NCBI GenBank assembly: GCA_028279745.1
Contig: JANQNC010000001.1
Span: forward strand, 90,001-122,000
Direction of reading: 5' to 3'
DNA length: 32,000 nucleotides
Origin: Candidatus Nanoarchaeia archaeon
GTDB lineage: Archaea > Nanobdellota > Nanobdellia > Woesearchaeales > JANQNC01
The stretch's first letter is position 1; each line of letters starts with the position of its first letter. The notes beneath the pieces are model-generated. The model did not search any database, was not told where the DNA came from, and saw only the letters and a program-made list of their open reading frames with translations. Below are positions 164 to 31,990 of the stretch, piece by piece. A program made the position numbers and the translations under genes.

Positions 164-1105
164 TTATAAGCTTTTCTTTAAATTAGTATATGGGGTGATG
201 ATTGTAGGAGATTCTTTAACCATAACTTCATAATTCCAACCATTTACGCCTGTAATCTGGCCTTCCCCTGTGAAGTATTGTTTGATAAAACGGGTTTTTC
301 CTCTCATCTTTGTAAAGTAAGTAGAATCTTCTTTAAATCTTCTCAGATGTCCCCTTACTGGGTGTGCGCCTCTTGGTTCTTTAGTCTTATTTCTGAAAAA
401 ATCTTTTGTGTCATCTTCATTTAGGCAGATATAGTGTGGTCTCATTACGGTTTTACGTAAGAACTCTCTTTTTTTCTTTTTGCCATTGCTCTTTGAAGTT
501 AGTTTTTTAGAGCTGTTGTTCTCTTTCAGAATCAGGAAATTCCCGGGATCCATCAGGTAAACTAGCTGATCAACAAATGCGATAGTGTCTTTGCCAACGC
601 AAGATGCCATCTGTAATGGGTTGCTGGGTTGGGGTATGCCTTGGAAGAAGTTTTTACTAAATAGATTGGAGACCTCAACATAAACTTTGGGTCTTGGTTC
701 ATCTATTTTTGCATAAGACACAGAAATGCTTTGAACCCCCTTATCCATTATTGAAGAAACAACAAAATAGTTGTTGTTTGTGTCAATCTCACGCAATATT
801 ATTGCAGACATTGAGTCTTCTATTGCGGTAGTTGTATAAGGAAGGATGAGGTGTTGGTTATTCTGTTTTGATAGTGCAAAATAATCTCCTACATATCTAG
901 AATACTCGTCCCTGTTTTTCCCTGTGCTGGGAATAAGCTTTTCAACAATCATTGGAAACTCAAAAAGAGCTGCTTCTTTGATTATATCTTCAAGAAAAGG
1001 CTTGACTGGACCAATAATGTTTGCTTTTTCATCGTCCCTTAGTTGAGTCTTTGTAAACTCTATTAATGCATCAAATGATTTCCCCATAATGCTATTTAAA
1101 ATCAA
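164..1105 (-). CDS. hypothetical protein, 313 aa, with a Lys/Arg-rich C-terminal third
   Basis: Long ORF with no credible competing frame. Basic patches KKKKREFLRK and RGHLRRFK are present. I recognise no catalytic or family motif. Confidence 0.55.
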   Translation of the reverse strand: MILNSIMGKSFDALIEFTKTQLRDDEKANIIGPVKPFLEDIIKEAALFEFPMIVEKLIPSTGKNRDEYSRYVGDYFALSKQNNQHLILPYTTTAIEDSMSAIILREIDTNNNYFVVSSIMDKGVQSISVSYAKIDEPRPKVYVEVSNLFSKNFFQGIPQPSNPLQMASCVGKDTIAFVDQLVYLMDPGNFLILKENNSSKKLTSKSNGKKKKREFLRKTVMRPHYICLNEDDTKDFFRNKTKEPRGAHPVRGHLRRFKEDSTYFTKMRGKTRFIKQYFTGEGQITGVNGWNYEVMVKESPTIITPYTNLKKSL

Positions 1106-1736: not shown

Positions 1737-2171
1737 ATGTTTCTTAGGCATATGGGAATGGTAACAGATAAAGTACTAAAAGAGTTTGACATGCAGTACT
1801 GGGAAAAAGTTAGATACAAAGCAGATGAAGATCTGTTTTACAGAGTTAGTGAGGGGGGTGTTGAGACTCCTGTAAGGATGAATAGATTCGACACGCAGAA
1901 TAAACCAAATGCGACTGAAAAAGAATATGAACGAGAGTTGACTGGGGCAGACAAAAGATTAAGAGAGATAATAATGGAGCATGTCGAATGGGTTGTTGGT
2001 GAAGATTTGGTGAGAGAAGGGCATATGGCTCATGGGAATGGAAGTTATATCTCTATCACAAGAGGAGCATGCAATATTCTCTGGAAAAGAAAAAAAGAGA
2101 TGCTGATGGAAAAGTACAATATCGGTTGGAATTCACCACCAGAACAACAGCCGGGAATATTTCTTGATTAA
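1737..2171 (+). CDS. hypothetical soluble protein, 144 aa
   Basis: The ORF has protein-like composition and no recognised motif. Its stop codon overlaps the stop of the convergent 2168-3319 gene in the palindrome TTAA (2168-2171). The start could also be one of the in-frame ATGs a few codons downstream. Confidence 0.45.
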   Translation: MFLRHMGMVTDKVLKEFDMQYWEKVRYKADEDLFYRVSEGGVETPVRMNRFDTQNKPNATEKEYERELTGADKRLREIIMEHVEWVVGEDLVREGHMAHGNGSYISITRGACNILWKRKKEMLMEKYNIGWNSPPEQQPGIFLD

Positions 2172-3319
2172 AGTTTATCTATGATTGGTCTGTAAATATC
2201 TTCAGGAAATAGGATGGGGAATATTTTACTAAACTGATTCTTTTTGTAAGTGTCATGATCAACATCGGGGTTTGTCCTTCTAACTTCTGCGTCAGCTAAA
2301 GTTAAGATTTGAACCTCAACAGGAATTCTTTCGTGTGTGTATTGTCCAAGAGGATGATTTCTAATTTCTTCCCTTGGTGAAGGAAGTCTGATGTAAAACT
2401 TAGTTACGTTAAAGTCATCGCTTGATGTGGAATTAACTTTCTTTCTTCTTGTGTCTTTGAAGTCTTCACGACCAGAACTTATCTGGATATGGGTGCCAAA
2501 ATAACTATCTAATTTGTTTTTAGCTTTATCATCTTCTACAATAAATTCAAAACCTGTGTAATCTTTAATCTCATCTGCGAAAGTATTTCTTAACATTAGT
2601 TTCATCAGTATTGATGCGTGTTTTATCTCTCCATCTTGATCTAGAAGCTTGTTTCTTGAACGAACGGGTTTATCTTTTGTTCCATAAACTTTTATTCCTG
2701 CTTTTGTGTCCCATGAATGAGTGTAGCCTTCAAGATTTACATCTTGAGGATTTGAAAAACTAAAAGTGTTGCTAAACCAATTCAATGCAGCAGGATAGTG
2801 CTTTAAAGAACCGATAACTGCAGGAGACTCATCAATCTTCATTATGTAATTTCCTAGCCCATAATTTCTTACTTTACAGAATGCAGAATAAATGCGGTCA
2901 TGATCAAAGCTTTTTGGTTTTTTCCCATTCTTTGCTTCTATCATATCCTCTCTTGCTTGTTTCAAGTAATCAAAAACATTGATTGGGTTTTCGATGTAGT
3001 CTATCTTGAATAATTTGCCGTATTCGGGCATGTGTTTTTCTAAAAGAAAATTAATTGCTTCAACTCCTCTGTTGATTGCTTTTGTAAACTCATTCTCTAC
3101 AACTGAATCCATTTCATCAGGCATAAATGTATTTCTAAGATAGTTTACAAAGAATGATTCTTGGTCGTTAGCCAGTGGAACTCGGATGCCTTTGAAGTTA
3201 AGGTAGTTTATCTTTGGGTTGAAATGAACAAAAGTTCTCCAAGCCTTCTTTTTGTCTACCGTCTTGGTATGTTCACCATATATCTTGTCTGCTAAAGTGG
3301 GTGTTTCTTCAGGTTCCAT
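2168..3319 (-). CDS. RelA/SpoT-fold (RSH-like) nucleotidyltransferase domain protein, with an unknown N-terminal ~220 aa
   Basis: The C-terminal half carries the ordered RelA_SpoT synthetase-like pattern. The elements are IKHASILMKLMLR (helix with K/R), IKDYTGFEFIV (D-x-x-G-x-x-hhh strand), FNVTKFYIRLP, and IPVEVQILTLADAEV...HDTYKK (compare vEIQIRT...W....H..YK). The match is divergent and was read by eye only. Confidence 0.45.
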   Translation of the reverse strand: MEPEETPTLADKIYGEHTKTVDKKKAWRTFVHFNPKINYLNFKGIRVPLANDQESFFVNYLRNTFMPDEMDSVVENEFTKAINRGVEAINFLLEKHMPEYGKLFKIDYIENPINVFDYLKQAREDMIEAKNGKKPKSFDHDRIYSAFCKVRNYGLGNYIMKIDESPAVIGSLKHYPAALNWFSNTFSFSNPQDVNLEGYTHSWDTKAGIKVYGTKDKPVRSRNKLLDQDGEIKHASILMKLMLRNTFADEIKDYTGFEFIVEDDKAKNKLDSYFGTHIQISSGREDFKDTRRKKVNSTSSDDFNVTKFYIRLPSPREEIRNHPLGQYTHERIPVEVQILTLADAEVRRTNPDVDHDTYKKNQFSKIFPILFPEDIYRPIIDKL

Positions 3320-3387: not shown

Positions 3388-3515
3388 CGCCGGCGGCAGG
3401 ATTTGAACCTGCATATCCAGAGGAAACTGGTTCTCACAAAGGCAAGCCTTTCTGGACACCCAGCAAAGCTGTGCATTTTCGAGACCAGCGCAATACCAGA
3501 TTATGCGACGCCGGC
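3388..3515 (-). tRNA. tRNA-Ser (anticodon CGA) with a 45-nt intron at the canonical 37/38 position
   Basis: Manual cloverleaf. The acceptor is GCCGGCG/CGCCGGC with discriminator G, and U8 is present. The D arm is GCAU-AAUCUGGUA-UUGC with G18G19. The anticodon stem is CUGGU/ACCAG and the loop is CUCGAAA (anticodon at 3479-3481). The long variable arm is UUUCCUCUGGAUAU and the T arm is GCAGG-UUCAAAU-CCUGC. The intron at 3433-3477 contains two small hairpins. No CCA is encoded. Confidence 0.85.
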
Positions 3516-4915: not shown

Positions 4916-5926
4916 TTAAAGTTTTTGTTTATTTTTTAGAAATCCTTGCTTGTTTATGAATCTGATAACTTTTTTTGCAGTTTGTTTTGTAAACGTATTA
5001 TAGATTTTGTATGTAAGTTTGTTGTTATCAAATAAGGGCATTTTATTCTTCCATAACTTCAAAAGATAATGGGGTGGGGGGTCAGATAAGATAACTGGGT
5101 TTTTTCTTTTCATCCACAAGACTTCGGTAAATCCTGAAGGCATACCTATCACAAGGTCGCATTTAGATAGGATTTCAGTCTCAGCAGCAAAACCTATCCC
5201 TTTTAGATAAGTGCAACTTTCTGAAGGAATATTTAGGCTTTTTGTTGTGTATTTTGCGTTATGTTCACCATTCACAAATGCGCCTTTGTTTTTTATGTTG
5301 TCGGTGAGAGTTGAAATACTTTGTTTGTTCATTCCACATATAAGGATGTGGGCATCATATATTTCTATAAGTTTATTGAAAAGATCGCTTTTTGTTTTAA
5401 TTATCTGTTTTTCAGATTTTTGAAAGAAACCTTTTATTGCTCCTTTTTTAGTACGATAACGCCATAAATAACCGATGGTGACTTTTTTATCAAAAATGGA
5501 AGGATCTATATTGTTTTCTTTCATGCAGATGGGCAAGTATCTTTTTCCAATTTCACTTAAATCTAAGCTTAAACCAGATCTGGCAAAGTTGTGTTTTTCG
5601 ATTATGTTCCATGGAAGATTATGTTTTTTGAACTTTCTCCTGATGTTTATGGGTAGTTTGTCTAAGATTTTTTCTTTTAGCTCTGGGTCATTAATTTGGA
5701 ACTGGTAAAAATAATCTATGTCAACTTCAGTTATCTTATCCGCAAGATAAACCTCATCTAACATGTCTAACTTATAGTGTTTCATAGCATCCAAACGGTT
5801 ATCAACTGCAAAGAAGCCTATCCAAGACTCGTTGTCTTTCTTTATTTTTTTAATTGAGCATAACTGTTCATAACAATCTCCCAACGCACCATGGATTATT
5901 GTCCCAACTCTTTTTTTATGTGTCAT
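4916..5926 (-). CDS. GT-B glycosyltransferase, family-9 (heptosyltransferase)-like
   Basis: The N-terminal IIHGALGDCYEQLCSIKKIKK resembles GT9 (i..lgaLGDv....P.l.aLk). The C-terminal TEILSKCDLVIGMPSGFTEVL...NPVILSDP resembles GT9 (l..adLvIgnDSGpmHlA...tPtvaLfGp). The match is motif-level only. Confidence 0.45.
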   Translation of the reverse strand: MTHKKRVGTIIHGALGDCYEQLCSIKKIKKDNESWIGFFAVDNRLDAMKHYKLDMLDEVYLADKITEVDIDYFYQFQINDPELKEKILDKLPINIRRKFKKHNLPWNIIEKHNFARSGLSLDLSEIGKRYLPICMKENNIDPSIFDKKVTIGYLWRYRTKKGAIKGFFQKSEKQIIKTKSDLFNKLIEIYDAHILICGMNKQSISTLTDNIKNKGAFVNGEHNAKYTTKSLNIPSESCTYLKGIGFAAETEILSKCDLVIGMPSGFTEVLWMKRKNPVILSDPPPHYLLKLWKNKMPLFDNNKLTYKIYNTFTKQTAKKVIRFINKQGFLKNKQKL

Positions 5927-19690: not shown

Positions 19691-19838
19691 GAATCATAAC
19701 TAGTATTTAAATGTTTCTATTTTTAACCACCCTCCAGTAGAGAATTATATATAAAATCAACCTCTAGAAGGTCTAAAAAGGGCAATATTTAAATACTAAG
19801 GGTCCCAGAATTGATATATAGATAAGTGAGTGGTTAAT

Positions 19839-20342
19839 ATGACAGAATTACCAGAAAATCTAAAGAACGTGGGAGATGCGTTAGATAATGAGCGAGTTAG
19901 TATGGGGATAAGTGCGACTGGAGCGGTAGCGAAGCAGTCAGAAGCCCCAGAACAGGCAGAAGAGCCAGTATCAGAGCCTGTAGAAACTCCAAAAGAGGAG
20001 CCAAAAATGGATGATTCAACAGCAAATGAGCTTAAAGAAAGAGTAGAGAAGATGGAGAATGTATTGCAAGAATTTGGTAAATTCTTCATGGAATACAAAG
20101 AAGAAAACGCAAAAAGAGTTGGAGAGCTATCAGAAGCAGTATCTGCATTCAGAAATGAGATGTTGAACATTAAGACTGCAGCACAGAAAACAGAAGCTGC
20201 TCCAGCAGCACCGGCACCAGTACAATCAGCTGAATCAACCCCTGCTGAAAAACCAAACCACAAAACTGGAGACACAAAATCCAGTGACGTAGACATAAAC
20301 GAGATATTCAGCAACGCAAACGGCAGGATGATGAAAAAGTAA
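19839..20342 (+). CDS. acidic, Ala/Pro/Glu-rich protein with a central coiled-coil-like segment; hypothetical
   Basis: The ATG at 19839 (MTELPENLKN...) is preferred to the track's GTG at 19830. The central ELKERVEKMENVLQEFGKFFMEYKEENAKRVGELSEAVSAFRNEM is helical. The antisense ORF 19796-20410 is S/F-rich junk. Confidence 0.55.
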   Translation: MTELPENLKNVGDALDNERVSMGISATGAVAKQSEAPEQAEEPVSEPVETPKEEPKMDDSTANELKERVEKMENVLQEFGKFFMEYKEENAKRVGELSEAVSAFRNEMLNIKTAAQKTEAAPAAPAPVQSAESTPAEKPNHKTGDTKSSDVDINEIFSNANGRMMKK

Positions 20343-20362
20343 TCAATGGAGGCAATTAAAAA

Positions 20363-20509
20363 ATGGCAGAAGCAAGATGCATGAAATGCAGAACACAAGT
20401 AGAAATCCAAAACCCTGAAGAAGTAATTAATGCAAGAGGCCTTAAAATGATCAAAGGTAACTGCGGAGCATGCAACACAAAAGTTTGCAGGATCGTAGGA
20501 AAAGCATAA
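20363..20509 (+). CDS. small zinc-ribbon protein, 48 aa (CxxC...CxxC)
   Basis: My own translation is MAEARCMKCRTQVEIQNPEEVINARGLKMIKGNCGACNTKVCRIVGKA*. A GGAGG SD lies at 20348-20352. The layout matches small stand-alone zinc ribbons common in archaea. The ORF is below the ORF-track cutoff. Confidence 0.6.
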   Translation: MAEARCMKCRTQVEIQNPEEVINARGLKMIKGNCGACNTKVCRIVGKA

Positions 20510-20666: not shown

Positions 20667-20696
20667 TTTATAAATAGTATACTAATGTTTATAAAG
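20667..20696 (+). promoter_or_regulatory. two tandem TATA-like boxes (GTTTATAAA x2, 20 nt apart) upstream of the Ntn-hydrolase gene
   Basis: GTTTATAAATAG lies at 20667-20678 and GTTTATAAAG at 20687-20696. The second box overlaps the track's ATG at 20685, which argues that the real start is the downstream ATG at 20742 with its GGGGG SD (20730-20734). Confidence 0.35.
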
Positions 20697-20741
20697 AACC
20701 TGTATTCACTGTTAAGTGTTGAAAATGATGGGGGAAGAGAA

Positions 20742-21653
20742 ATGACTATCTGTGTAGGATTCATACCTAATGATAAAACTGTCATGATTATGCAGGATGG
20801 AGAGGTTACAAATGGTAGGACTGGCATCCCTTACACAGTAAAAAAGATGCAGAGGTATGATGATAAGTTTTTTATTGGCTATCTGAAAAGCAGAGAGTTA
20901 AGCGGACTTTTAGATATAATTCTGCAGGGAGCAGATCTAAATAAGATAAAAAATTATGATGATATGAAAAAAGAGATAGAAAAAGCAAGACACAAAGTGT
21001 GGAAATCAGAAGCATTAGCAGTCTTAAAACAACACGGGGTTAATTCTTTAGAAGCTTTAACATCAACTGTTATCGACGAAGAAACAGAAAAAGAGATCGA
21101 TCTAAAGCCGGAAGTAAAGAATGTTTTACTTAACACAATAACAGATAAATCTTTTTTACAGATGGGTCTGATGGTGGGATACTTTTTTGATAAGCCAGGG
21201 ATAAGTTATATGTCTGTAGCGGGTGCATTAAGAGGAAGTGTTATCGGACCAAAAGAATTCTATGTGGATGGGGTTGCTGGTGAAGGAATAACTATGAAGA
21301 TGAAAAAAATGGTTGCAGAGTACCAATGGAAACCAGGAATAGACAATGTTGATGCATTAGACATCCTAGTAAAAGCGGGAAATGGAGCTTCGGAGTATTC
21401 TGGAGTTGGAGGGCCTTTCTCTATAATTATGATGGGTGAAGATAAAAAAGTAAAAGAGCTAGATGAAAGAAAACTGAACATGGTTATGGATATTGATAGA
21501 CTAAACGAACTTTCTGCAGGAGGATTTATCCCTGCATACTGTGATGCATTGACAGATCTTGCCGACCATAAAGTTAGCGCTGACCAATTATACGATAAAT
21601 TATCAAAGTTAGATGTGGGTTATGAATTTAAACATAAGTTTAAGAACTCATGA
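20742..21653 (+). CDS. proteasome-beta/HslV-like Ntn-hydrolase-fold protein with no propeptide (Met-Thr start) and an ~80-aa insertion
   Basis: With the start at 20742 the protein begins MTICVGFIPNDKTVMIMQDGEVTNGRTGIPYTVKKM. That places Thr at +1 after Met removal, Asp at about 18 and Lys at 33, matching the proteasome T1/D17/K33 triad spacing. Later elements are YVDGVAGEGI (compare GSG) and ALDILVKAGNGASEYSGVGGPFSIIMM (compare A...A..RD..SGG.i.v). All of this was read by eye. Confidence 0.5.
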   Translation: MTICVGFIPNDKTVMIMQDGEVTNGRTGIPYTVKKMQRYDDKFFIGYLKSRELSGLLDIILQGADLNKIKNYDDMKKEIEKARHKVWKSEALAVLKQHGVNSLEALTSTVIDEETEKEIDLKPEVKNVLLNTITDKSFLQMGLMVGYFFDKPGISYMSVAGALRGSVIGPKEFYVDGVAGEGITMKMKKMVAEYQWKPGIDNVDALDILVKAGNGASEYSGVGGPFSIIMMGEDKKVKELDERKLNMVMDIDRLNELSAGGFIPAYCDALTDLADHKVSADQLYDKLSKLDVGYEFKHKFKNS

Positions 21654-22861: not shown

Positions 22862-22891
22862 AATATTTCTTAAAATAACACTTTGTTAACA

Positions 22892-23272
22892 ATGCCAAAA
22901 GAAATTCTATACCTTGATCTAAACAAAGTAGATCTATATGTTTCTGAAAATATGAAAAGTGATCTAGTTATTGAGTCGATTATCAAAGGAATAGAATTGG
23001 GGGATGATATTCCTGCAGTTCCTGTATCTCGGATAGACGAAACAACATATGAACTTGCAGACATAGATGATTTTCCGTTAGAACATGGGGGCAATCATAG
23101 AGCAGTTAGTTATTTTATTTCTAATATGCCGATGAAAAGTGTAATTTTGGCAAAGAGAAAGGAGTTATCAAACAAACTGCATGTAAAAGATGTAATCTTA
23201 GTTAATGATTCTCAACTTCCCGAATCGGACAGGTTGGATTTTAGAAAAAAAGCTTATTCGGGATATAGATAA
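22892..23272 (+). CDS. stand-alone ParB-N/sulfiredoxin-fold domain protein, 126 aa
   Basis: LDLNKVDL...ESIIKGIELGDDIPAVPVSRIDETTYELADIDDFPLEHGGNHRAVSYF matches the ParB-N pattern (..SI...G...Pi.V......y.l.dG.HR..A). The start is set at the ATG at 22892 rather than the TTG at 22883. Confidence 0.5.
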   Translation: MPKEILYLDLNKVDLYVSENMKSDLVIESIIKGIELGDDIPAVPVSRIDETTYELADIDDFPLEHGGNHRAVSYFISNMPMKSVILAKRKELSNKLHVKDVILVNDSQLPESDRLDFRKKAYSGYR

Positions 23273-23296
23273 AAAAAGAAAAGAAAAAAAGAAAGA
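23273..23296 (-). terminator. oligo-T-rich terminator region at the end of the purine operon
   Basis: The minus strand reads GTCTTTCTTTTTTTCTTTTCTTTTTT immediately after the stop of the 432-aa gene. Confidence 0.35.
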
Positions 23297-24595
23297 CTAA
23301 TCTTTCTGTACTCTGCTTGCGTAAGGCAAGAATTCATCAACCCAAGCATCAACAGGTCTTGCGTCGAATATGTCTGTACCTAAAGCTCTGTTACCAACAA
23401 CTTTCAGAGCATCTGCCATCATAGCACATGAATCATCTGCTGCTGACTGCAATGTTTCTTTAGTTGTGTGGTTCAACAAGTAGTTGTGCCAGTTGTCTGT
23501 ATTGCCTTCTACCTTTTGAGCTTCTGCTTTAGCATCATCACAAGCTTGGTAAATACCTCTTGCTCTGAAAACAGCTCTTTGGATCTCTTTGTTGGTAGGA
23601 ACTAGGTATTCTATCCCGTTCTTTTCAACTAAGATCATCTCTCTGTTTTCGTCAGGTGTTTTAGCGAAGTCAGTCAGTTTAATTTTTCCACCGTCATAAA
23701 CAACACCTTCAACTTTACCGTCCATGTTCTTGATGTTTCTTTCTCCATCATACTTCATCTGGTCGTTTGCACATTTTCTTACTGTGCCTTTCCAGATTTC
23801 ATAACCTTTCTCATCAACACCCATCCTTGCTCTAGCTTCGTCTTCAGTAACGTCTTCGTCTCCACCAACGCTGAACTTTGTTGTAAAGTTAAGAACTGGG
23901 GATTCAAGAACTGCACCTGGATTAGGTATTGTTCCGCCTAATGTTAATTCTTCCAAATAACCTTTCAGATCAGGGAAAGAATCCAGACCTTTTTCAGCAA
24001 CGTCTGCTCTTATCTCATCAAGAGCTTGTACTGTTTCGTCGTAAGTAGCTATCTTTTCATAGATGTCTCCTCTTCCGGTGTACTTGAACATCTTCTTGAA
24101 AGAACTTGAACCTAGTGGGAATCCTCCTCTGAAGATAGATTCTGCATCTGCAACATAAACTGAGATGTCGCCTTGTTTGATAGCTTCGTGGTATTCTTTA
24201 ACTGCTTCAACAGTTCCTGCTTTAGGAATGTTTGCAAGCTGCATAACAATTATATCGCTTAGCTCTCCTCTGTCAAGTAAAGTTGTTGTATCAACTACAT
24301 TTCCTTCACTGTCCATCAGACCAAGATAGCATGAACCTAACCCGATATTTTCTGCATGCTCAAAGTAAGATGCAGTCATCATAGTCAAGATGTAATTCTT
24401 TGAGTCAATCTCTACTGGGGGGATCTGTTTTTTCAAGTCAGCTACTGAAAATCTTCCGCTGACTTTCCAAGCCCCTTGTCCGAACTTGTGGGGTTCTGTT
24501 TTTATGTACAGTTTTTCTGCAAGTTCTCTTCTTTTTGTATCCAATCCAACTATTTCCGGTCCGCCCGGTATTATCATATCTTTTACACTTCCCAT
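23297..24595 (-). CDS. unknown soluble acidic protein, 432 aa; last gene of the purine operon
   Basis: Clean ORF with its own GGAGGAG SD, 26 nt after the purE stop. I recognise no motif of any purine enzyme or other family. Checked by eye: PurC, PurD, PurH, PurM, PurN, PurO, PurP, PurT, RuBisCO, MAT and FBPase. Confidence 0.6.
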   Translation of the reverse strand: MGSVKDMIIPGGPEIVGLDTKRRELAEKLYIKTEPHKFGQGAWKVSGRFSVADLKKQIPPVEIDSKNYILTMMTASYFEHAENIGLGSCYLGLMDSEGNVVDTTTLLDRGELSDIIVMQLANIPKAGTVEAVKEYHEAIKQGDISVYVADAESIFRGGFPLGSSSFKKMFKYTGRGDIYEKIATYDETVQALDEIRADVAEKGLDSFPDLKGYLEELTLGGTIPNPGAVLESPVLNFTTKFSVGGDEDVTEDEARARMGVDEKGYEIWKGTVRKCANDQMKYDGERNIKNMDGKVEGVVYDGGKIKLTDFAKTPDENREMILVEKNGIEYLVPTNKEIQRAVFRARGIYQACDDAKAEAQKVEGNTDNWHNYLLNHTTKETLQSAADDSCAMMADALKVVGNRALGTDIFDARPVDAWVDEFLPYASRVQKD

Positions 24596-24621
24596 TTTTT
24601 TCTCCTCCTATAAAGTAATCC

Positions 24622-25653
24622 TTAAACAAATGCTTCAATGCCTTCAGATTGAACTAAATCATCATTCTCTTTAACATCTTCAGCTAAAGATTCTCGATAA
24701 TCTTTAATCTTCTCTTGGATTTTAGGTACGGTCAAACCAACTATCTGCGAAGCGTACAAAGCAGCATTAGAGTATTTGTTAATTCCAATTCCTGCAACAG
24801 GGCATCCTTTTGTTTCCTCTTCAATATCTGTAAGCCCAAGCAGACTATTGAAAATATCTCCTTCTATGAAATCGTTACTTCCTGCATAACCTTCTGCAAT
24901 CGGCAATCCAATTGTCGGAAGATCTGTTTGTTCTGCAACATTTCTTGGGAAGTAGTTTGTAGATTCTTCATCGTCCAAAGCACCAAGTGCAATAACTGCT
25001 TTAGCGCCTTTATTCTCCAACTCTCTGGAAGTTTTTATCATTCCTTCAGAATCAACAGTAGATAATTCATACTCTTTAGTTTTAATACCGAACGCAGTCA
25101 TTAAAAAAACCATGTTTTCATATTTATCTTGGTTTAGATTAATATCTGATGGTTTAATTATCCCAACAAAAGGAACATTATCAACTTCAGAAACTTTTCC
25201 ACCAATCCCTCTATAAGATCTGATCTTATTTCTTATTTCTGGGTTATTGTTGTAAGCTATCTGAGCAGCTAAGATTGCTGCACTTTCTGACTGTCCAACA
25301 CCAACTGAACCTACAGGAATCCCATCAGGCATCTGTATAATTGAATACAAAGAATCTTTCCCTTCTAAACTGCTTGTTTTTACAGGTAAACCAACAACAG
25401 GCAACAATGTTTTTGAAGCAGTCATGCCTGGCAAGTGTGCAGAACCTCCTGCAGCAGCAATACTTACATAAAAACCATTATCAGAAAGTTTTCTAGCTGC
25501 CTCTGTCATTATGTGTGGAGTCCTATGAGCAGACAATACTCTTGGCGAGTATGGGATGCCTACAGATTCCAGAAACTCATAAGCTTTCTTAATTTTTGGA
25601 ATGTCTGATTTACTTCCAGTCCTGATTTCAATTAAAGGTTTTTCATTTTTCAT
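24622..25653 (-). CDS. purE: N5-CAIR mutase (class I PurE) fused to a second, degenerate PurE-like domain
   Basis: Domain 1 (aa 1-~150) has GSKSD, SAHRTP (class I signature), AAGGSAHLPGM, LPVVGLPV and IPVGSVGVG...AAILAAQI. Domain 2 (aa ~160-343) keeps the fold-like strings (IKPSD, VIALGALDDE, LPTIGLPI, CPVAGIGI...AALYASQIVG) but lacks SAHR and the GG.AHLPG loop. Confidence 0.85.
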   Translation of the reverse strand: MKNEKPLIEIRTGSKSDIPKIKKAYEFLESVGIPYSPRVLSAHRTPHIMTEAARKLSDNGFYVSIAAAGGSAHLPGMTASKTLLPVVGLPVKTSSLEGKDSLYSIIQMPDGIPVGSVGVGQSESAAILAAQIAYNNNPEIRNKIRSYRGIGGKVSEVDNVPFVGIIKPSDINLNQDKYENMVFLMTAFGIKTKEYELSTVDSEGMIKTSRELENKGAKAVIALGALDDEESTNYFPRNVAEQTDLPTIGLPIAEGYAGSNDFIEGDIFNSLLGLTDIEEETKGCPVAGIGINKYSNAALYASQIVGLTVPKIQEKIKDYRESLAEDVKENDDLVQSEGIEAFV

Positions 25654-25655
25654 TT

Positions 25656-26840
25656 TTATTTTCCTCCATTATCTATTGTTATTTTCTCTTTTATTTTCTC
25701 AGCACGAATTATTAAGTCTTCTTGGTCTTCCCCCTTATTTGAGATGACAGTAAAATGACCCATCTTTCTGTAAGGTTTAACTTCATGTTTGCCATAGTTA
25801 TGAACAAAAACTCCTTTCTCAACTTCAGCAGTTCCAATTATTTGTGAATTATCAAACATTATCTGGTAATTGCCTGTTTGGCCATCTAATCCAATAATGT
25901 TATGCATGACTGCAGGACCTGAAATTAAATCAGTGTTTCCTAAACTTTCTCCTGAAATTGCCCTTATGTGTTGTTCGAACTGGGAAGTTTGACATGCTTC
26001 AATAGTATAATGGCCAGAGTTATGAACTCTTGGTGCAATCTCATTGATCAAAACATCGCTACCTGCAACAAGCATCTCAATACCAAAAACACCTGCACCA
26101 TTTAATGATTCCATTGTTTGTTTTGCAATTCCCTTTGCTTTCTCTATGATTTCTTTGTTAACTCTGGCGGGAACAATTGTTTTTTCTAATATGTTGTAAT
26201 CTTTTCCATGAACATTCTCTCCAACAGGAAAGATTGAAATTTCTCCATTCACACCTCTTGCAGTAATTACTGATATTTCAACATCAAAAGGAATATACTC
26301 TTGAGCCATAATCTCTCTTCCGTTAAAGTAAGACAAGACTCCATCAACTTCACTATCCTTTCTTAAAACAAAATTACCTCTGCCATCATATGAGTCTTTT
26401 CTTGCTTTAATCATTAAAGGCAAACCATATCCAGAAATAACTTGTTCTAATTCTTCTTTTCCACTAACACTTTCGAAATTAGGTACAGGTATGCTAGAAT
26501 TGTATAAAAAATCAGCTTGTGTGTACTTATCCTGAATTGTTCTTAGCGTATCAGGAGAAGGGTGAACAGGCAAACCTTTTTTTCTTAGCTCTTCTAAAAC
26601 TTTACTGTTGGCTAATTCAATCTCAAAAGTTATTATGTCTGAAGAATTTCCTAATTTCCTAATTTGTTCTTCGTCCTTGTAATCTCCAACAAGTTGGTCA
26701 TCTAAAAAACTATATGCAGGACAATTTGGAGTGGGGTCTACTGCAATTAATCTGTAAGGCAGATCTTTGTCTTTGATAGACTCACCTATCATCAAACATA
26801 ACTGACCACCGCCAACAACACCTATTGTTTTTTTGTTCAT
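25656..26840 (-). CDS. purK: N5-carboxyaminoimidazole ribonucleotide synthetase (ATP-grasp) PurK
   Basis: IGVVGGGQLCLM is at the N-terminus, and the ATP-grasp core shows GLPLMIKARKDSYDGRGN and ELNEIAPRVHNSGHYT-like (INEIAPRVHNSGHYTIEA). The gene sits 2 nt from purE. Confidence 0.88.
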   Translation of the reverse strand: MNKKTIGVVGGGQLCLMIGESIKDKDLPYRLIAVDPTPNCPAYSFLDDQLVGDYKDEEQIRKLGNSSDIITFEIELANSKVLEELRKKGLPVHPSPDTLRTIQDKYTQADFLYNSSIPVPNFESVSGKEELEQVISGYGLPLMIKARKDSYDGRGNFVLRKDSEVDGVLSYFNGREIMAQEYIPFDVEISVITARGVNGEISIFPVGENVHGKDYNILEKTIVPARVNKEIIEKAKGIAKQTMESLNGAGVFGIEMLVAGSDVLINEIAPRVHNSGHYTIEACQTSQFEQHIRAISGESLGNTDLISGPAVMHNIIGLDGQTGNYQIMFDNSQIIGTAEVEKGVFVHNYGKHEVKPYRKMGHFTVISNKGEDQEDLIIRAEKIKEKITIDNGGK

Positions 26841-26847
26841 TTTATAA

Positions 26848-28293
26848 TTACACGTTCAATTCTGAATCTGAGTCTCCGATCAGATCTTTATACTTCATCA
26901 AGACAGGGTCAACTTCAGTTTCAATAAATTCATCAACCTGTTCTGATGCCCGCCCTGTAAACCTTGAAGGATTATCCAGCAAAGTGTCTAGATATTCTTT
27001 TCCTGCAGGGAAGTTAGAATCTTTTTCTAATCTTTCAAAAAGATCGTTTGGCTTGCCTTCTTCCTTAACAATCTTACCTGCCGCAACTGAATGAACTTTT
27101 ATTATTTCGTGCATTTCATTTCTGTTATGTCCTTCTTTAGCTAAGTCCATCAAGATTTCTTCAGTAGCCATAAATGGCAGTTCTTGATCAAGATGTTTCT
27201 TGATTTGTGCAGGATAAACAACCATTCCTTTAGTAATGTTCTGATAGATTTTTAAAACAGCATTTGTCAACAAGAACTCTTCAGAAATCAAGCTTCTTCT
27301 AGCTGAAGAATCATCTAGCGTTCTTTCAAACCACTGGTTTGCATGAATTTGCCCAATCATATTAGGGTAATTCATCAACATTCTAGAAAGGCTGGTCATC
27401 CTTTCAGAACGCATAGGATTTCGCTTGTAAGCCATAGCAGAACTTCCGGTCTGCTTTTTAGAGAAAGGTTCCTCCTGCATTTTCAGATTAGAAAGTAATC
27501 TAAGATCGCATGCAAACTTACTTGCTGAAGAAGCAATGCCTGCAAGAACGCTAGAGACCATTGTGTCAAACTTTCTTGAATAAGTTTGACCCGTAACAGG
27601 GTAAGATTCACTAAATCCTAATTTTTTTGTAACAAGCTCATCCAACTTCTTAACTTTTCCATGATTTCCGTCAAAAAGTGTAAGATATGAAGCTTGTGTT
27701 CCTACAGTTCCTTTGGCGCCTCTTGCCTTGAAAATACTTTCTAAATGCTCAATTTGCTCGAGATCCATTAAAAGATCCTGTATGTAAAGAGTATTTCTTT
27801 TTCCAACAGTTGTGGGTTGACCGGGCTGATAGTGAGTAAAACCCAAAGTAGCTAAATTCTTATGATCTTTAGCAAACTTAGAAAGATTGTAAATTGTGTT
27901 AACTAAGTCCTTTTTGACAAGGGTTAAAGCTTCTTTTTGCTGTATAAGATCTGTATTGCAACACACATATTGGGAAGTTGCGCCCAAATGTATAATGCCT
28001 TTAGCTTCGGGGCAGTGAAGACCATATTCATATACGTGAGACATGACGTCATGTCTTGTTTCTTTTTCTCTTTTTTTTGCAACATCATAATCAATGTTTG
28101 TTACAGCGTCATACATCTCCTTGATCATATTGTCTGTTATCTGGGTTAAGCCTAACTCTTTCTCTGCTTCAGCTAAATCGATCCAACATTTTCTCCAAGT
28201 CTGAAATTTAAAATCATTAGAGAATATTTTTTGCATCGCTTTATCGGCGTATCTTCCTGATAGGGCAGATTGATAGATTGAGTTATCGGTCAT
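26848..28293 (-). CDS. purB: adenylosuccinate lyase PurB
   Basis: The fumarase/ASL family signature TGSSAMAYKRNPMRSE is present, with an N-terminal YQSALSGRYADKAMQKIFS. I prefer the ATG at 28293 (MTDNS...). The GGAGG within the last codons of the upstream gene then serves as SD and the 17-nt overlap disappears. The alternative start is 28311. Confidence 0.88.
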   Translation of the reverse strand: MTDNSIYQSALSGRYADKAMQKIFSNDFKFQTWRKCWIDLAEAEKELGLTQITDNMIKEMYDAVTNIDYDVAKKREKETRHDVMSHVYEYGLHCPEAKGIIHLGATSQYVCCNTDLIQQKEALTLVKKDLVNTIYNLSKFAKDHKNLATLGFTHYQPGQPTTVGKRNTLYIQDLLMDLEQIEHLESIFKARGAKGTVGTQASYLTLFDGNHGKVKKLDELVTKKLGFSESYPVTGQTYSRKFDTMVSSVLAGIASSASKFACDLRLLSNLKMQEEPFSKKQTGSSAMAYKRNPMRSERMTSLSRMLMNYPNMIGQIHANQWFERTLDDSSARRSLISEEFLLTNAVLKIYQNITKGMVVYPAQIKKHLDQELPFMATEEILMDLAKEGHNRNEMHEIIKVHSVAAGKIVKEEGKPNDLFERLEKDSNFPAGKEYLDTLLDNPSRFTGRASEQVDEFIETEVDPVLMKYKDLIGDSDSELNV

Positions 28294-28294
28294 T

Positions 28295-28777
28295 TTATTG
28301 TATTCCTCCATTTATTGTTTCAAAATTTTTTATTTTATTTATTTTCTGAGGGTTATTGTCTAAAACCAAAAAGTTCATTTTAGGGTGTGCTTGATAAACT
28401 CGGTTGAAGTAATCATAAACGTCTTTTGCATCACCTTTACTTAACTCTTCAGAAATATGTATAACTAATTTTTGAATCCCTTCAGTGTGTTTTTCTAAAG
28501 TATCAAAAGCGGTGTCGTTTAGTATGGGTGTGAGTTCACCAAGACATTCATAGATCCTTCTGTGGCAAAGAACCTGCATGTATGAAGGATAAGTCACATT
28601 ACTTACTTGGGTGTCATTATCCATTACATATATCACTCCGCTTTTGTCGATCTTTCCCTTAACAAAGTTATTGCTGCCATCAAGGTAAGGATGGTTATTG
28701 CCTCTGTAGTTGAAAACGGCAATATTTATGTCATTTTTTTGAAACACTGCTGCAACGTCATCTTTTGTCGTAATCAA
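28295..28777 (-). CDS. unknown protein, 160 aa, embedded between purA-like and purB
   Basis: Clean ORF, 8 nt after the purA-like stop and abutting the purB start. No motif is recognised. Confidence 0.55.
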   Translation of the reverse strand: MITTKDDVAAVFQKNDINIAVFNYRGNNHPYLDGSNNFVKGKIDKSGVIYVMDNDTQVSNVTYPSYMQVLCHRRIYECLGELTPILNDTAFDTLEKHTEGIQKLVIHISEELSKGDAKDVYDYFNRVYQAHPKMNFLVLDNNPQKINKIKNFETINGGIQ

Positions 28778-28785
28778 TTTATCAC

Positions 28786-30519
28786 CTACTCTCCCTTTTT
28801 AACATAAATTAAGTTATCCGTTTCTGGACCATTCCCAACTGAAATTACTTCTAAGCCAGTTAATTTTTCTACTGCACCAATAAAGTTCTGAACAGTCTGA
28901 GGTAAAGGATCATTTGGATCTCTTTTCCCGACACCAATAGGTGTGTCCTTCCAACCAGGCATGACTTTTGTAATTCCATAACAATGTTTTAGAACTTGAT
29001 CACAAGGGTAAGGGTCGCCAACTTTTATTATATCTCCATTCTTGTAAATCTTACCTCCTGACTCAGCACCTTCGCCAGATGGGTTGTGATAAACATAACC
29101 AACTGTTAACCCAACATAATCTTGGTCATCTCCTCTATCTAAAGCGGATATTGAGGTGAAGGGTCCTTGAACTTCATTAACAACAGCTGCAGACAAACAA
29201 TCAAACACACCAGTAACTCTTGGCTTGCCTGTTGTAGCTCCTTTCTCACCAAAGTTTCTTGAAGAAGCGATAGCCATAGCTTCATTAATCCGGAATTCAC
29301 CAGATTCATCCTTGTAACTTACAGGATTAAGAACTCCGTTCTTACCCACACTTTCAAAATATGCTTTTTGTATTCTATCAAAGTCTTCACAACCCTCAAG
29401 CTCATTCAAAGAATCAATGTTTGCCTTAGAGAAATGGTCTTGTGGAACAAACGATGAAGGGTTTGCACCAATACCAACTCTTGAATCTGCAGGTGTCTTG
29501 AAAACATTGATCACTGCAGTCTTGTACTTTGTTGTGTTATACAAAGCAGAAGCGATAACTCCTGCAGCATGAGTCTGTGCAGATGTTGAAGAAGGCCAAT
29601 GCTTCTCAGTAGCGTTAGAAAGATTGAATGACTGAGGTGATTCAATCAAACCTTTATTGCCTTTCTCTAGATTCTCCCTAAACATCTTAGCAACATCAGC
29701 TCTCTTCGGGAAATCAGAGTTTTTAACAACCTTCTCCTCATAAAGAGATATCAAGTATTCAACTTTTTTCTTAACATCTCCAGCTTTCAAAAAGTCATAC
29801 ATGTGAGCAGGAACTTTTCTGGTGCCTTTAGCAACCATTGCATCCAAGCCATCAATAACTTCCTGTTCATCTTTGTCATTGTGTTTCATCAGAGCTTCAT
29901 AGATATTAAGCTCTTTAGTAAGTCTTTTAGCTTGTTCATCTGTAGAATTAAATAAATGATCTAATCTTAATCCTCTTTTCATAGCTTTAGAAGCATGAAT
30001 GTAAGACATACCCATCAAAGTAGACGAGTTTGGAGGATTTAATGCAAAATCCAAAACCTTATGTTGAGGTCCAACAACATGAACATTACCTACAAATAAT
30101 TTATCTTTGTAGTCGATACCTGCATTAACTAACTGGCTAATCTCTTTCTCCATGTAGTTGATAGGATCCATAACACACTCAGAACCGATTGCATTAACTT
30201 TTCCAGTAAGAATTCCAGAAGGCGTTAGGTTGAAAACATATTTTTTACCATCTAACATAACAGTGTGGCCTGCATTCTCTCCTGAGTTAAATCTTGCAAT
30301 CAATTGAACTAGCTCATTATTGGCAATAGCATCAGTTATTTTTCCTTTACCTTCATCACCAAAGTAACCTCCTGCAACAACTAAAACCTGATTAGCTTCA
30401 ATTATTGGAAGTAGTACATCTTCAAAAGAGCTTGGAGAATAGCTGCCTGAATAATTTTCAGCTAGCGCTTCTATCACACTAATATCTTTTATTTCGTCAA
30501 ATACATTTTGTATTGCCAT
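28786..30519 (-). CDS. purA: adenylosuccinate synthetase-like protein, unusually long (577 aa) and divergent
   Basis: PurA hallmarks occur in order: GYFGDEGKGKITD (P-loop GDEGKGK), NAGHTV, ESPQSFNLS...WPSSTS (compare EGAQG..LD...GTYP.VTSS), SRVGIGANP (compare TRVG.GPFP) and GATTGKPRVTGVFD (compare G.TTGR.RR.GW.D). The canonical TTxxGIGP(A/C)Y segment is not recognisable. There are several insertions relative to the ~340-430-aa enzymes. Confidence 0.7.
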   Translation of the reverse strand: MAIQNVFDEIKDISVIEALAENYSGSYSPSSFEDVLLPIIEANQVLVVAGGYFGDEGKGKITDAIANNELVQLIARFNSGENAGHTVMLDGKKYVFNLTPSGILTGKVNAIGSECVMDPINYMEKEISQLVNAGIDYKDKLFVGNVHVVGPQHKVLDFALNPPNSSTLMGMSYIHASKAMKRGLRLDHLFNSTDEQAKRLTKELNIYEALMKHNDKDEQEVIDGLDAMVAKGTRKVPAHMYDFLKAGDVKKKVEYLISLYEEKVVKNSDFPKRADVAKMFRENLEKGNKGLIESPQSFNLSNATEKHWPSSTSAQTHAAGVIASALYNTTKYKTAVINVFKTPADSRVGIGANPSSFVPQDHFSKANIDSLNELEGCEDFDRIQKAYFESVGKNGVLNPVSYKDESGEFRINEAMAIASSRNFGEKGATTGKPRVTGVFDCLSAAVVNEVQGPFTSISALDRGDDQDYVGLTVGYVYHNPSGEGAESGGKIYKNGDIIKVGDPYPCDQVLKHCYGITKVMPGWKDTPIGVGKRDPNDPLPQTVQNFIGAVEKLTGLEVISVGNGPETDNLIYVKKGE

Positions 30520-30532
30520 TATTTCACCTTCG

Positions 30533-31990
30533 TTATTTTTTTACAGTCATGCTGTGAGTGTTACTCACGATCTGACTTGTTGTCGGAGAATTTAATTCTA
30601 TAACTGCATTCTCTCTAAATTCGTTTAAGTTCATACTGCCTGAGTTAACTAGAGCAGCTTTTATCTTAGTCATGTCAACATTAAAGTTTGGCTTAAGTCT
30701 CCCTTTGTAGAGAACTGTGCCTTCTTCACCTTCAGCAAAGAAAGTTTTTCTTGTAATGTGTCCGTAACGTTCAAGATTCTGAGCTCTCTTAGAACCTTCG
30801 CCATAAGTAACAACTTCAACCATCTTATTCTCGTTTTTGGTTTCTTTACCGTCTTTGTCTAGCTTTTCACCTGCTGCTTCGTAGAAATGATTAAAGTAAC
30901 CACCCATCATTATAGCATCTGCAACTGTTAATGCAATAATCATATCAGCAGGACTAGAAATTCCCCCGTCAGAAATGATTCTTACAAGGCGATTATGTTC
31001 TTTTAGGTAATCTTCTCTTGCTCTATTAGCTTCTAACAGAGCAGTGAATGGTGCTCTTCCAGTAGCTTTTTCTCTTTGAGTGCTGCAAATAGAACCAGAA
31101 GACATACCTGTCTTAATAATGTCTGCACCGTGCTTCATTAAGTAAAGGGCACCGTTGTATGTAATGACATTTCCAACACAGATAGGAACTCCTGTTTTCA
31201 TATCTTTGTATCTGTCAAGAACATTACTTGCAAACTCGCTGTAAGCATCAGAAGAATCAACAACAATTAAGTCAACACCTGCAGCAACACATTTCTCAAC
31301 TCTTTTCTCCCAACCTTTATGAGTTCTGATTGCTGCTCCAACTTGAAGTGTTTCAATATCCTTCTCAAAAGCTAACTTAACTAATCTATCTTGTTCATCC
31401 AATACAACTAAGTAGTTAGCATCTTTTTCTTTAATCATCGCTTTAGCTTCATCAACAGAAATATTTGGGTTATTGCAATAAGCTATTGGGTCTTGGCTTT
31501 CCCTTTTGAAAGGGGTCATAGCTTGAGTTACTCTTTCATCACTGCTAACTTCACTGTTCCAGTATTCTTGTTGATCAAAAACACCAAGTAAAAGATTATT
31601 TCTGTCGGTAACAGGAATTTTAGAATAACCGTGTCTTTCAATTAACTCAATAACTGATTCGACAGAGTCATTTTCATTCGCTATAACAGGATCCTCAACG
31701 AAATTCATCTCATAAGTCTTAATGTCTCTAATGATCTTCTCCTGTCTATCTATAGGTAAAGCAGCAGGTAAAATTCCCATGCCTCCTTCTTTACTTAGCT
31801 CTAAAGCCATATCATAACCAGTAACAGAACTCATAGCAGCACTTAACGTAGGAGTCTTAAGCTTAAGTTTGTCAGTAAGCTTAGTCTCTAAAGAAATTGC
31901 AGGAATTTCACAACCAAGTTTAGTTAAACCAGTAAGCAAACTGTACTCCTGAAAAGTTCTGCCAGGTTCGTTTATGATTTGTTTTACCAT
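30533..31990 (-). CDS. guaB: IMP dehydrogenase GuaB with a CBS-pair subdomain
   Basis: The TIM-barrel IMPDH shows SAAMSSVTG, the catalytic loop GMSSGSICSTQ, and ISDGGISSPADMIIAL. A CBS pair is inserted after residue ~95. It is the first gene of the operon, and its start lies 10 nt from the window edge. Confidence 0.88.
   Translation of the reverse strand: MVKQIINEPGRTFQEYSLLTGLTKLGCEIPAISLETKLTDKLKLKTPTLSAAMSSVTGYDMALELSKEGGMGILPAALPIDRQEKIIRDIKTYEMNFVEDPVIANENDSVESVIELIERHGYSKIPVTDRNNLLLGVFDQQEYWNSEVSSDERVTQAMTPFKRESQDPIAYCNNPNISVDEAKAMIKEKDANYLVVLDEQDRLVKLAFEKDIETLQVGAAIRTHKGWEKRVEKCVAAGVDLIVVDSSDAYSEFASNVLDRYKDMKTGVPICVGNVITYNGALYLMKHGADIIKTGMSSGSICSTQREKATGRAPFTALLEANRAREDYLKEHNRLVRIISDGGISSPADMIIALTVADAIMMGGYFNHFYEAAGEKLDKDGKETKNENKMVEVVTYGEGSKRAQNLERYGHITRKTFFAEGEEGTVLYKGRLKPNFNVDMTKIKAALVNSGSMNLNEFRENAVIELNSPTTSQIVSNTHSMTVKK

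Follow-up and report, generated by a model that had tools for sequence, protein, structure and literature searches.

The window, as we call the whole 32-kb stretch of DNA analyzed here, carries on its minus strand a series of tightly packed genes in the order guaB, a purA-like gene, an ORF for a 160-aa protein, purB, purK, purE, and an ORF for a 432-aa protein (Table 1). From guaB to the last ORF, the spacers measure 13 and 8 nt, a 17-nt overlap, and then 7, 2, and 26 nt. The overlap becomes a 1-nt gap if purB begins at its Met7 (position 28293), which is preceded by a better GGAGG site and is probably the true start. The 5′ end of the operon lies past the window edge. At the other end, the ORF for the 432-aa protein is intact and scores highest in the operon for codon usage, and the T-rich tract directly behind its stop codon is likely an archaeal terminator that would end the transcription unit. 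With a pI of 4.86 the encoded product is acidic, and it lacks hydrophobic or membrane-like segments. An earlier note on this DNA had described the ORF, the gene order, the spacers, the Shine–Dalgarno site, the oligo-T tail, and an acidic, soluble product, all of which agree with the coordinates and the sequence.

Table 1. Coordinates of features in the window and in related loci, with gene orders around long purC
Feature	Sequence	Position	Strand	Evidence or gene order
T-rich tract, 26 nt, directly after the purC TAG stop; likely terminator	window	23271..23296	−	read from sequence
purC, probable long-form divergent SAICAR synthetase, 432 aa, ATG start, TAG stop	window	23297..24595	−	PF01259, AF2/Foldseek, residues, synteny
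AGGAGG, Shine–Dalgarno-like, 8 nt 5′ of the purC ATG	window	24604..24609	−	read from sequence
purE-purE′, fused double AIR carboxylase/N5-CAIR mutase domains, 343 aa	window	24622..25653	−	PF00731 217 bits, two stretches; TIGR01162 209 bits
purK, N5-CAIR synthetase, 394 aa	window	25656..26840	−	NF004679 370 bits (cutoff 326); TIGR01161 355 (cutoff 318)
purB, adenylosuccinate/SAICAR lyase, 487 aa	window	26848..28311	−	TIGR00928 368.5 bits (cutoff 326)
Orphan ORF, 160 aa, TTG start	window	28295..28777	−	without Pfam or NCBIfam match
purA-like adenylosuccinate synthetase with insertions, 577 aa	window	28786..30519	−	PF00709 203 bits, full profile; below NCBIfam equivalog cutoffs
guaB, IMP dehydrogenase, 485 aa	window	30533..31990	−	PF00478 238 bits
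tRNA match, 128 nt	window	3388-3515	−	Rfam, model positions 1–71
ORF without Pfam match	window	164-1105	−
ORF without Pfam match	window	2168-3319	−
ORF without Pfam match	window	4916-5926	−
ORF without Pfam match	window	19796-20410	−
ORF without Pfam match, 322 aa	window	20685-21653	+
ORF without Pfam match	window	22883-23272	+
Pur cluster with long purC	L001			purB-purM-like-purN-long purC
Pur cluster with long purC	L002			purD-purE-long purC-purB-guaB-purA-purO-AICARFT-AICARFT-purM
Pur cluster with long purC	L003			purL-purQ-purD-purN-purM-like-purE-purH(split)-purB-long purC
Pur cluster with long purC	L004			purE-long purC-purO-purM-like
Pur cluster with long purC	L005			purE-long purC-guaB-purA-purB-purD-...-guaA-purH
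Pur cluster with long purC	L037			purL-purQ-purN-purM-purO-long purC-purB-guaB-purA
Pur cluster with long purC	L039			purL-purQ-purE-long purC-purB-purO-AICARFT
Pur cluster with long purC	L040			purB-purE-long purC-purH
Long-PurC subclade locus, bacterial-type contig	L038	10001-11239
Long-PurC subclade locus, bacterial-type contig	L040	7867-13040
Long-PurC subclade locus, bacterial-type contig	L041	10001-11245
Protein of the 486- to 488-aa family in purM position	L001	7684-9150		faint AIRS N-domain match
Protein of the 486- to 488-aa family in purM position	L003	4135-5595		faint AIRS N-domain match
Protein of the 486- to 488-aa family in purM position	L004	7874-9337		faint AIRS N-domain match
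purB, 650 aa	L002	11284-13236		matches window PurB twice

Window GuaB is 55–58% identical to GuaB of Marine Group III (Poseidoniia/Thalassarchaeaceae; loci L006–L035), but only 24–31% identical to its counterparts in the DPANN relatives' pur clusters. PurB shares 66% identity with PurB of one such cluster (L003) and 30% with that of another (L002). From these GuaB and PurB identities the operon looks like a mosaic, possibly produced by gene transfer. When the relatives' purE genes were compared with window purE by tblastn, there was at most one marginal match, of 38 aa (E = 6e-4), from the 317-aa purE of L002. The PurA-like protein exceeds the usual length by ∼150 aa. It covers all of the PF00709 profile, scores far under the NCBIfam purA cutoffs, gives a weak match to the PurZ model (61.6 bits), and is only 26% identical to the PurA of DPANN relatives. 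The L002 PurB, from a Woesearchaeota contig, is 650 aa long and matches window PurB twice (residues 33–314 and 348–641), which suggests that its lyase domain is internally duplicated.

The 160-aa ORF between purA and purB is, by the searches made here, a true orphan. A search of 5.8 billion clusters returned only the ORF product itself, and neither Pfam, NCBIfam, nor the PDB gave a match. In frame, the codons are used as in coding sequence, though less markedly than in the neighboring genes, and an SD-like GGGAGAG lies upstream; an AF2 single-sequence model reached a pLDDT of 42, too poor to search. BLASTP of this ORF and of the 322-aa ORF on the plus strand, including comparison with a relative's PurO and PurH, returned nothing that would mark either one as a PurO/PurH-like protein or as the N-terminal piece of a long PurB. 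Elsewhere in the window, Rfam reports a tRNA where ARAGORN finds none; this is presumably an intron-containing archaeal tRNA. Apart from the 160-aa ORF, six ORFs encoding 129–383 aa, among them the 322-aa ORF, have no Pfam match at E ≤ 0.001.

Identity of the 432-aa protein

The operon had been described as containing two ORFs without a motif of any Pur enzyme. This holds for the 160-aa ORF, which had no match in the searches above, but not for the 432-aa protein, which belongs to the Pfam family SAICAR_synt (PF01259; 29.2 bits against a GA cutoff of 20; E = 9.9e-7). The match covers residues 227–318 and spans only positions 105–195 of the 233-position profile. In NCBIfam, the protein matches five purC models and nothing else, all of them far under the equivalog cutoffs (40.1 vs. 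189.9 for TIGR00081; 60.4 vs. 546 for NF010566). A sequence-only search of the PDB with the protein matched no chain, and the family profile reached Methanocaldococcus jannaschii PurC at only E = 0.85.

Searching 5.8 billion protein clusters gave 91 homologs of 400–450 aa that are 38–62% identical over their full length. Nearly all of these ∼90 proteins come from DPANN archaea, those with a named source being assigned to Nanoarchaeota/Woesearchaeota MAGs or to an unclassified "archaeon." Several already carry the NCBI or JGI name phosphoribosylaminoimidazolesuccinocarboxamide synthase, while others are called "hypothetical protein." Across 38 aligned homologs spanning the same identity range, 90 positions are at least 90% conserved; PF01259 is matched by 20 of the 38, and no other Pfam family is matched by any. 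The window protein is a further member of a known, partly annotated, and uncharacterized long-form PurC family of DPANN archaea. Against 1.84 billion representatives the family profile found only 382 proteins, and beyond the core family it reaches proteins of 340–400 aa at E values of 1e-38 to 1e-11. NF010566 gives these bridging proteins 170–330 bits. Their scores on TIGR00081 reach 195 bits, and one protein, P0124, clears the cutoff of that model (195.1 vs. 189.9); it can also be aligned directly with the 432-aa protein (27% identity; E = 2.5e-17).

The predicted structure leads to the same family. An AF2 model built from the 38-sequence alignment has a pLDDT of 95.8 and a pTM of 0.93. Searched against the PDB with Foldseek, a check that the earlier note had proposed, it shows the SAICAR synthetase fold: ranks 1–38 are all SAICAR synthetases or PAICS, with probability 1.00 and E values down to 1.6e-9. 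Target-normalized TM scores are 0.56–0.76 for stand-alone PurC chains (ranks 1–32) and 0.35–0.41 for bifunctional PAICS chains (ranks 33–38). The next match has an E value of 0.24, and no other fold in the PDB appears below 0.2.

Residues were paired with those of Escherichia coli PurC (Ec) by hhalign and by MAFFT through the bridging sequences (alignment A2, 15 sequences). Window G2 and K5 correspond to Ec G10 and K13, S50 and D53 to S33 and D36, E152 and R156 to E90 and R94, K240 and D246 to K123 and D129, D292, K294, and E296 to D175, K177, and E179, and D309, D315, and R318 to D191, D196, and R199. Fifteen columns of A2 show the same residue in each of its 15 sequences, and the residues listed here occupy 14 of them. 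They include PurC contacts for the substrate or the Mg-nucleotide, namely, Ec R94, D175, K177, E179, D191, and R199. With reference to the E. coli CAIR/ADP complex, Brown et al. (2011; PMC3261824) named E179, S100, R94, R199, and D175 as ADP/CAIR contacts with full conservation among archaeal PurCs. Of the five, E179, R94, R199, and D175 pair automatically in the 432-aa protein. By our reading of the motif E-x-I-F-R-G-G-F-P-L-G-S-S by eye, S163 would be the counterpart of S100, and a similar motif reading, again outside the automatic alignment, places K336 and R340 at Ec K211 and R215. Counterparts are therefore found for Ec R94, S100, D175, K177, E179, D191, R199, K13, and R215, with S163 and R340 assigned by motif reading only. 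The position of Ec Lys11 is occupied by Ser3; according to Brown et al. (2011, PMC3261824), conservation of this lysine is likewise lacking in Halobacteria and Archaeoglobi. Cys89 stands where archaeal PurCs have His (the Ec Gln69 position).

Profiles, fold, residues, and bridging sequences are four independent routes, and together they establish the homology of the 432-aa protein to PurC. The gene neighborhoods of the family bear on its function. Among ten homolog-bearing contigs that we read, eight place the long purC in a purine cluster, adjoining purE/AIRC, purB, purO, or purN (Table 1), so that the linkage to pur genes, which the earlier note had wanted checked, is conserved in these eight contexts; the other two are not pur clusters. 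Neither the pur-cluster loci that were read nor the window contains a second PurC-like gene, and the long family therefore fills the PurC slot as the sole candidate there. Hence, we conclude, with a probability of nearly 0.9, that the 432-aa protein is the SAICAR synthetase (PurC, EC 6.3.2.6) of this DPANN-type archaeon, an enlarged and fast-evolving form of the ordinary enzyme. The statement that the operon lacks PurC was wrong, since the protein proposed to stand in for a missing enzyme is PurC itself. It does fill a missing step, as had been suggested, but as a member of the expected pathway family, with the PurC fold, its catalytic motifs, and its Pfam assignment, rather than as a nonorthologous replacement or a new activity. 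The confident match to an unrelated family that would have undone the idea did not appear.

Two side observations concern the contigs of the family. A long-PurC subclade (P0051, P0059, P0072, P0078, and P0081) lies on contigs with the bacterial hallmarks IF3, L35p, L20, PriA, UvrA, sortase, and YkuD, which suggests transfer between DPANN archaea and bacteria, possibly CPR bacteria. On one of these contigs (L040), a mini-cluster purB-purE-purC-purH, covering AIR to IMP, sits beside resolvase, TrwB-like, and relaxase genes. In addition, three of the purine clusters carry, in purM position, a family of 486- to 488-aa proteins with a faint match to the AIRS N domain; it probably represents a further Pur enzyme that has diverged and become larger, and that strict models would overlook.

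Pathway context and competing explanations

The operon is predicted to encode the route from AIR to AICAR (PurK, PurE-PurE′, PurC, and PurB) as well as the steps from IMP to AMP and XMP. PurK would convert AIR to N5-CAIR, and PurE-PurE′ would convert N5-CAIR to CAIR. From the chemistry of its family, we infer that the long PurC binds Mg-ATP and CAIR, phosphorylates the 4-carboxylate of CAIR, and next attaches L-aspartate, yielding SAICAR, ADP, and phosphate. PurB would then split SAICAR into AICAR and fumarate. IMP would proceed to AMP through PurA and PurB and to XMP through GuaB.

The strongest competitor to a PurC assignment is a paralog that keeps the PurC fold while its function has been changed or added to. 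Such a protein might act on another carboxylate or phosphorylated substrate, or its insertions might serve a second activity or docking to PurE or PurB. The ∼190 extra residues with their near-invariant, family-specific motifs would fit this idea, as would the very low scores on the curated purC models. Two homologs have no pur neighbors and lie on contigs with bacterial hallmarks (L038, with IF3, L35p, L20, and PriA; L041, with sortase and YkuD), and Brown et al. (2011, PMC3261824) brought up a different chemistry for certain archaeal PurC-like proteins. However, every alignable contact residue for CAIR, ADP, and Mg is kept. Moreover, the family supplies the sole PurC candidate in eight of ten contexts, within complete or near-complete pur clusters in which some protein must perform the PurC step. 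We therefore regard a changed function as unlikely and retain SAICAR synthetase as the assignment.

What lies between AICAR and IMP is a separate matter. The earlier note had reported the formyltransferase and cyclohydrolase as missing, and within the 32-kb window this stands: Pfam scans and tblastn with the relatives' purH and purO found neither AICAR formyltransferase nor IMP cyclohydrolase. The steps before AIR were likewise not found within the 32-kb window by Pfam scans and by tblastn with the relatives' purM, purD, and purN. A word-seeded search with the PurO of a close relative as query returned no PurO relative from the 1,301,350-bp source contig, which is a weak negative. Nearly complete purine pathways have been reported for some Woesearchaeota (PMC8421398). 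Because relatives have full or nearly full pathways, the default expectation is that the AICAR-to-IMP and pre-AIR genes lie elsewhere in the genome. It is improbable, in our estimate, that the 1.3-Mb genome lacks PurH, PurP, and PurO altogether, with the gap closed by an unrecognized enzyme (the product of the 160-aa ORF, or an activity of the conserved additions to the long PurC) or through AICAR or IMP exchanged with a host. If it did, the operon would be a truncated AIR-to-AICAR branch standing beside the IMP-to-AMP/XMP steps.

Could the 432-aa protein itself be a nonorthologous replacement for PurH, or for PurP and PurO? That the 32-kb window has no purH, purP, or purO, together with the PurO search of the contig, invites the question. 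Yet the protein has the fold and the motifs of an ATP-dependent aspartate ligase, not of a formyltransferase or cyclohydrolase. PF01808, PF02142, PF06849/PF06973, and PF07826 gave no match to it at E values up to 1, and its PDB matches include no such fold. PurO and/or AICARFT genes occupy the same clusters as the long family at L002, L003, L004, L005, L037, L039, and L040; the family thus co-occurs with these enzymes instead of replacing them. Nothing supports a role for the 432-aa protein in AICAR-to-IMP conversion, and we judge such a replacement very improbable. Equally improbable is that the ORF is a decaying, nonfunctional remnant of purC in a symbiont whose genome is reduced and whose purine pathway is broken. 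Many DPANN genomes do lack complete purine synthesis (PMC7414124), and the searches of the window found no AICAR-to-IMP enzymes, but this reading is opposed by the intact ORF, its strong Shine–Dalgarno site and top codon usage, the 90 positions conserved among such diverse homologs, and the very confident AF2 model.

The assignment of the 432-aa protein as a long-form PurC leaves the known pathway unchanged, and no new enzyme is needed for the SAICAR step in this operon; its main value is as a correction. More broadly, strict equivalog cutoffs make metabolic reconstructions of DPANN archaea score PurC as missing even though it is present. Since about half of the long-PurC family has no Pfam match and several members are called hypothetical, the apparent auxotrophy of DPANN archaea is inflated.

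Comparison with known PurC and PurE enzymes

Compared with E. coli PurC (237 aa), the 432-aa protein has ∼190 extra residues, modeled as helices and one hairpin, while the core strands and the catalytic motifs are kept. The additions comprise insertions at approximately residues 13–32, 97–112, 121–147, 158–207, and 321–334 and a helical C-terminal extension (∼356–432). Near-invariant residues specific to the family are Y135, Y179, A183-T184-Y185, R196, W369, N402, and P424-Y425-A426-S427. As guesses, the extra segments may cover the active site or mediate contacts within an oligomer or with a partner. With its five insertions and its own invariant motifs, this architecture is a reasonable target for structural or enzymological work.

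The closest Foldseek matches are long-form, monomer-type enzymes of ∼295–306 aa, Saccharomyces cerevisiae Ade1 (1A48, 1OBD, and 2CNQ) and Mycobacterium abscessus PurC (3R9R and 6YVQ), at E values of 1.6e-9 to 1e-8 and probability 1.0. They have in common with the window protein a three-part fold with helices after the core, an R-x-S-x-x-D type motif in the N-terminal sheet (window R48-F-S50-V-A-D53), and the D-x-K-x-E and D...P-D-x-x-R motifs. However, the window protein is only 12–14% identical to them, ∼130 residues longer, and without a sequence-only match to them. Further differences are a helical insertion of 50 residues behind the G-S-S phosphate loop and a longer C-terminal helical bundle.

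Short-form PurC (∼230–240 aa; PF01259, TIGR00081) is represented by the E. coli (2GQR), M. jannaschii (2YZL), and Pyrococcus horikoshii (3U54/4O7L) enzymes. Their target-normalized TM scores of 0.65–0.76 mean that the 432-aa model contains almost all of the short enzyme, and 14 of the 15 invariant A2 columns are shared. The differences are the five insertions and the C-terminal extension, the replacement of Ec Lys11 by Ser, and that of the archaeal His (Ec Gln69) by Cys.

The metagenomic PurCs of 340–400 aa that match NF010566 (P0113–P0241; PRK13959.1-4) stand between these forms at 25–28% identity to the window protein. Both have an MGSVKD N terminus, the E-x-I-x-R-x-G-x-P-x-G-S-S loop, D-G-K-x-E, T-x-D-E-N-R, an S/N-K-E-x-x-R motif, and C-terminal helices. 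In contrast to the window protein, they have no equivalent of residues 13–32 and 179–207, and they score 170–330 bits on NF010566 against its 60. Measured against the intermediates of 340–370 aa, these two segments are all that the window protein has in addition. The long-form homologs of 400–450 aa agree with the window protein in both the insertions and the pur-cluster position.

Window purC follows a canonical purK and a double purE, whereas the relatives that were read have a short divergent AIRC of 171–184 aa or one of 299–317 aa, without purK. A fused double-domain PurE-PurE′ has been described for Methanobacteria, which lack purK (PMC3261824); in contrast, the PurE-PurE′ of the window adjoins a canonical purK.
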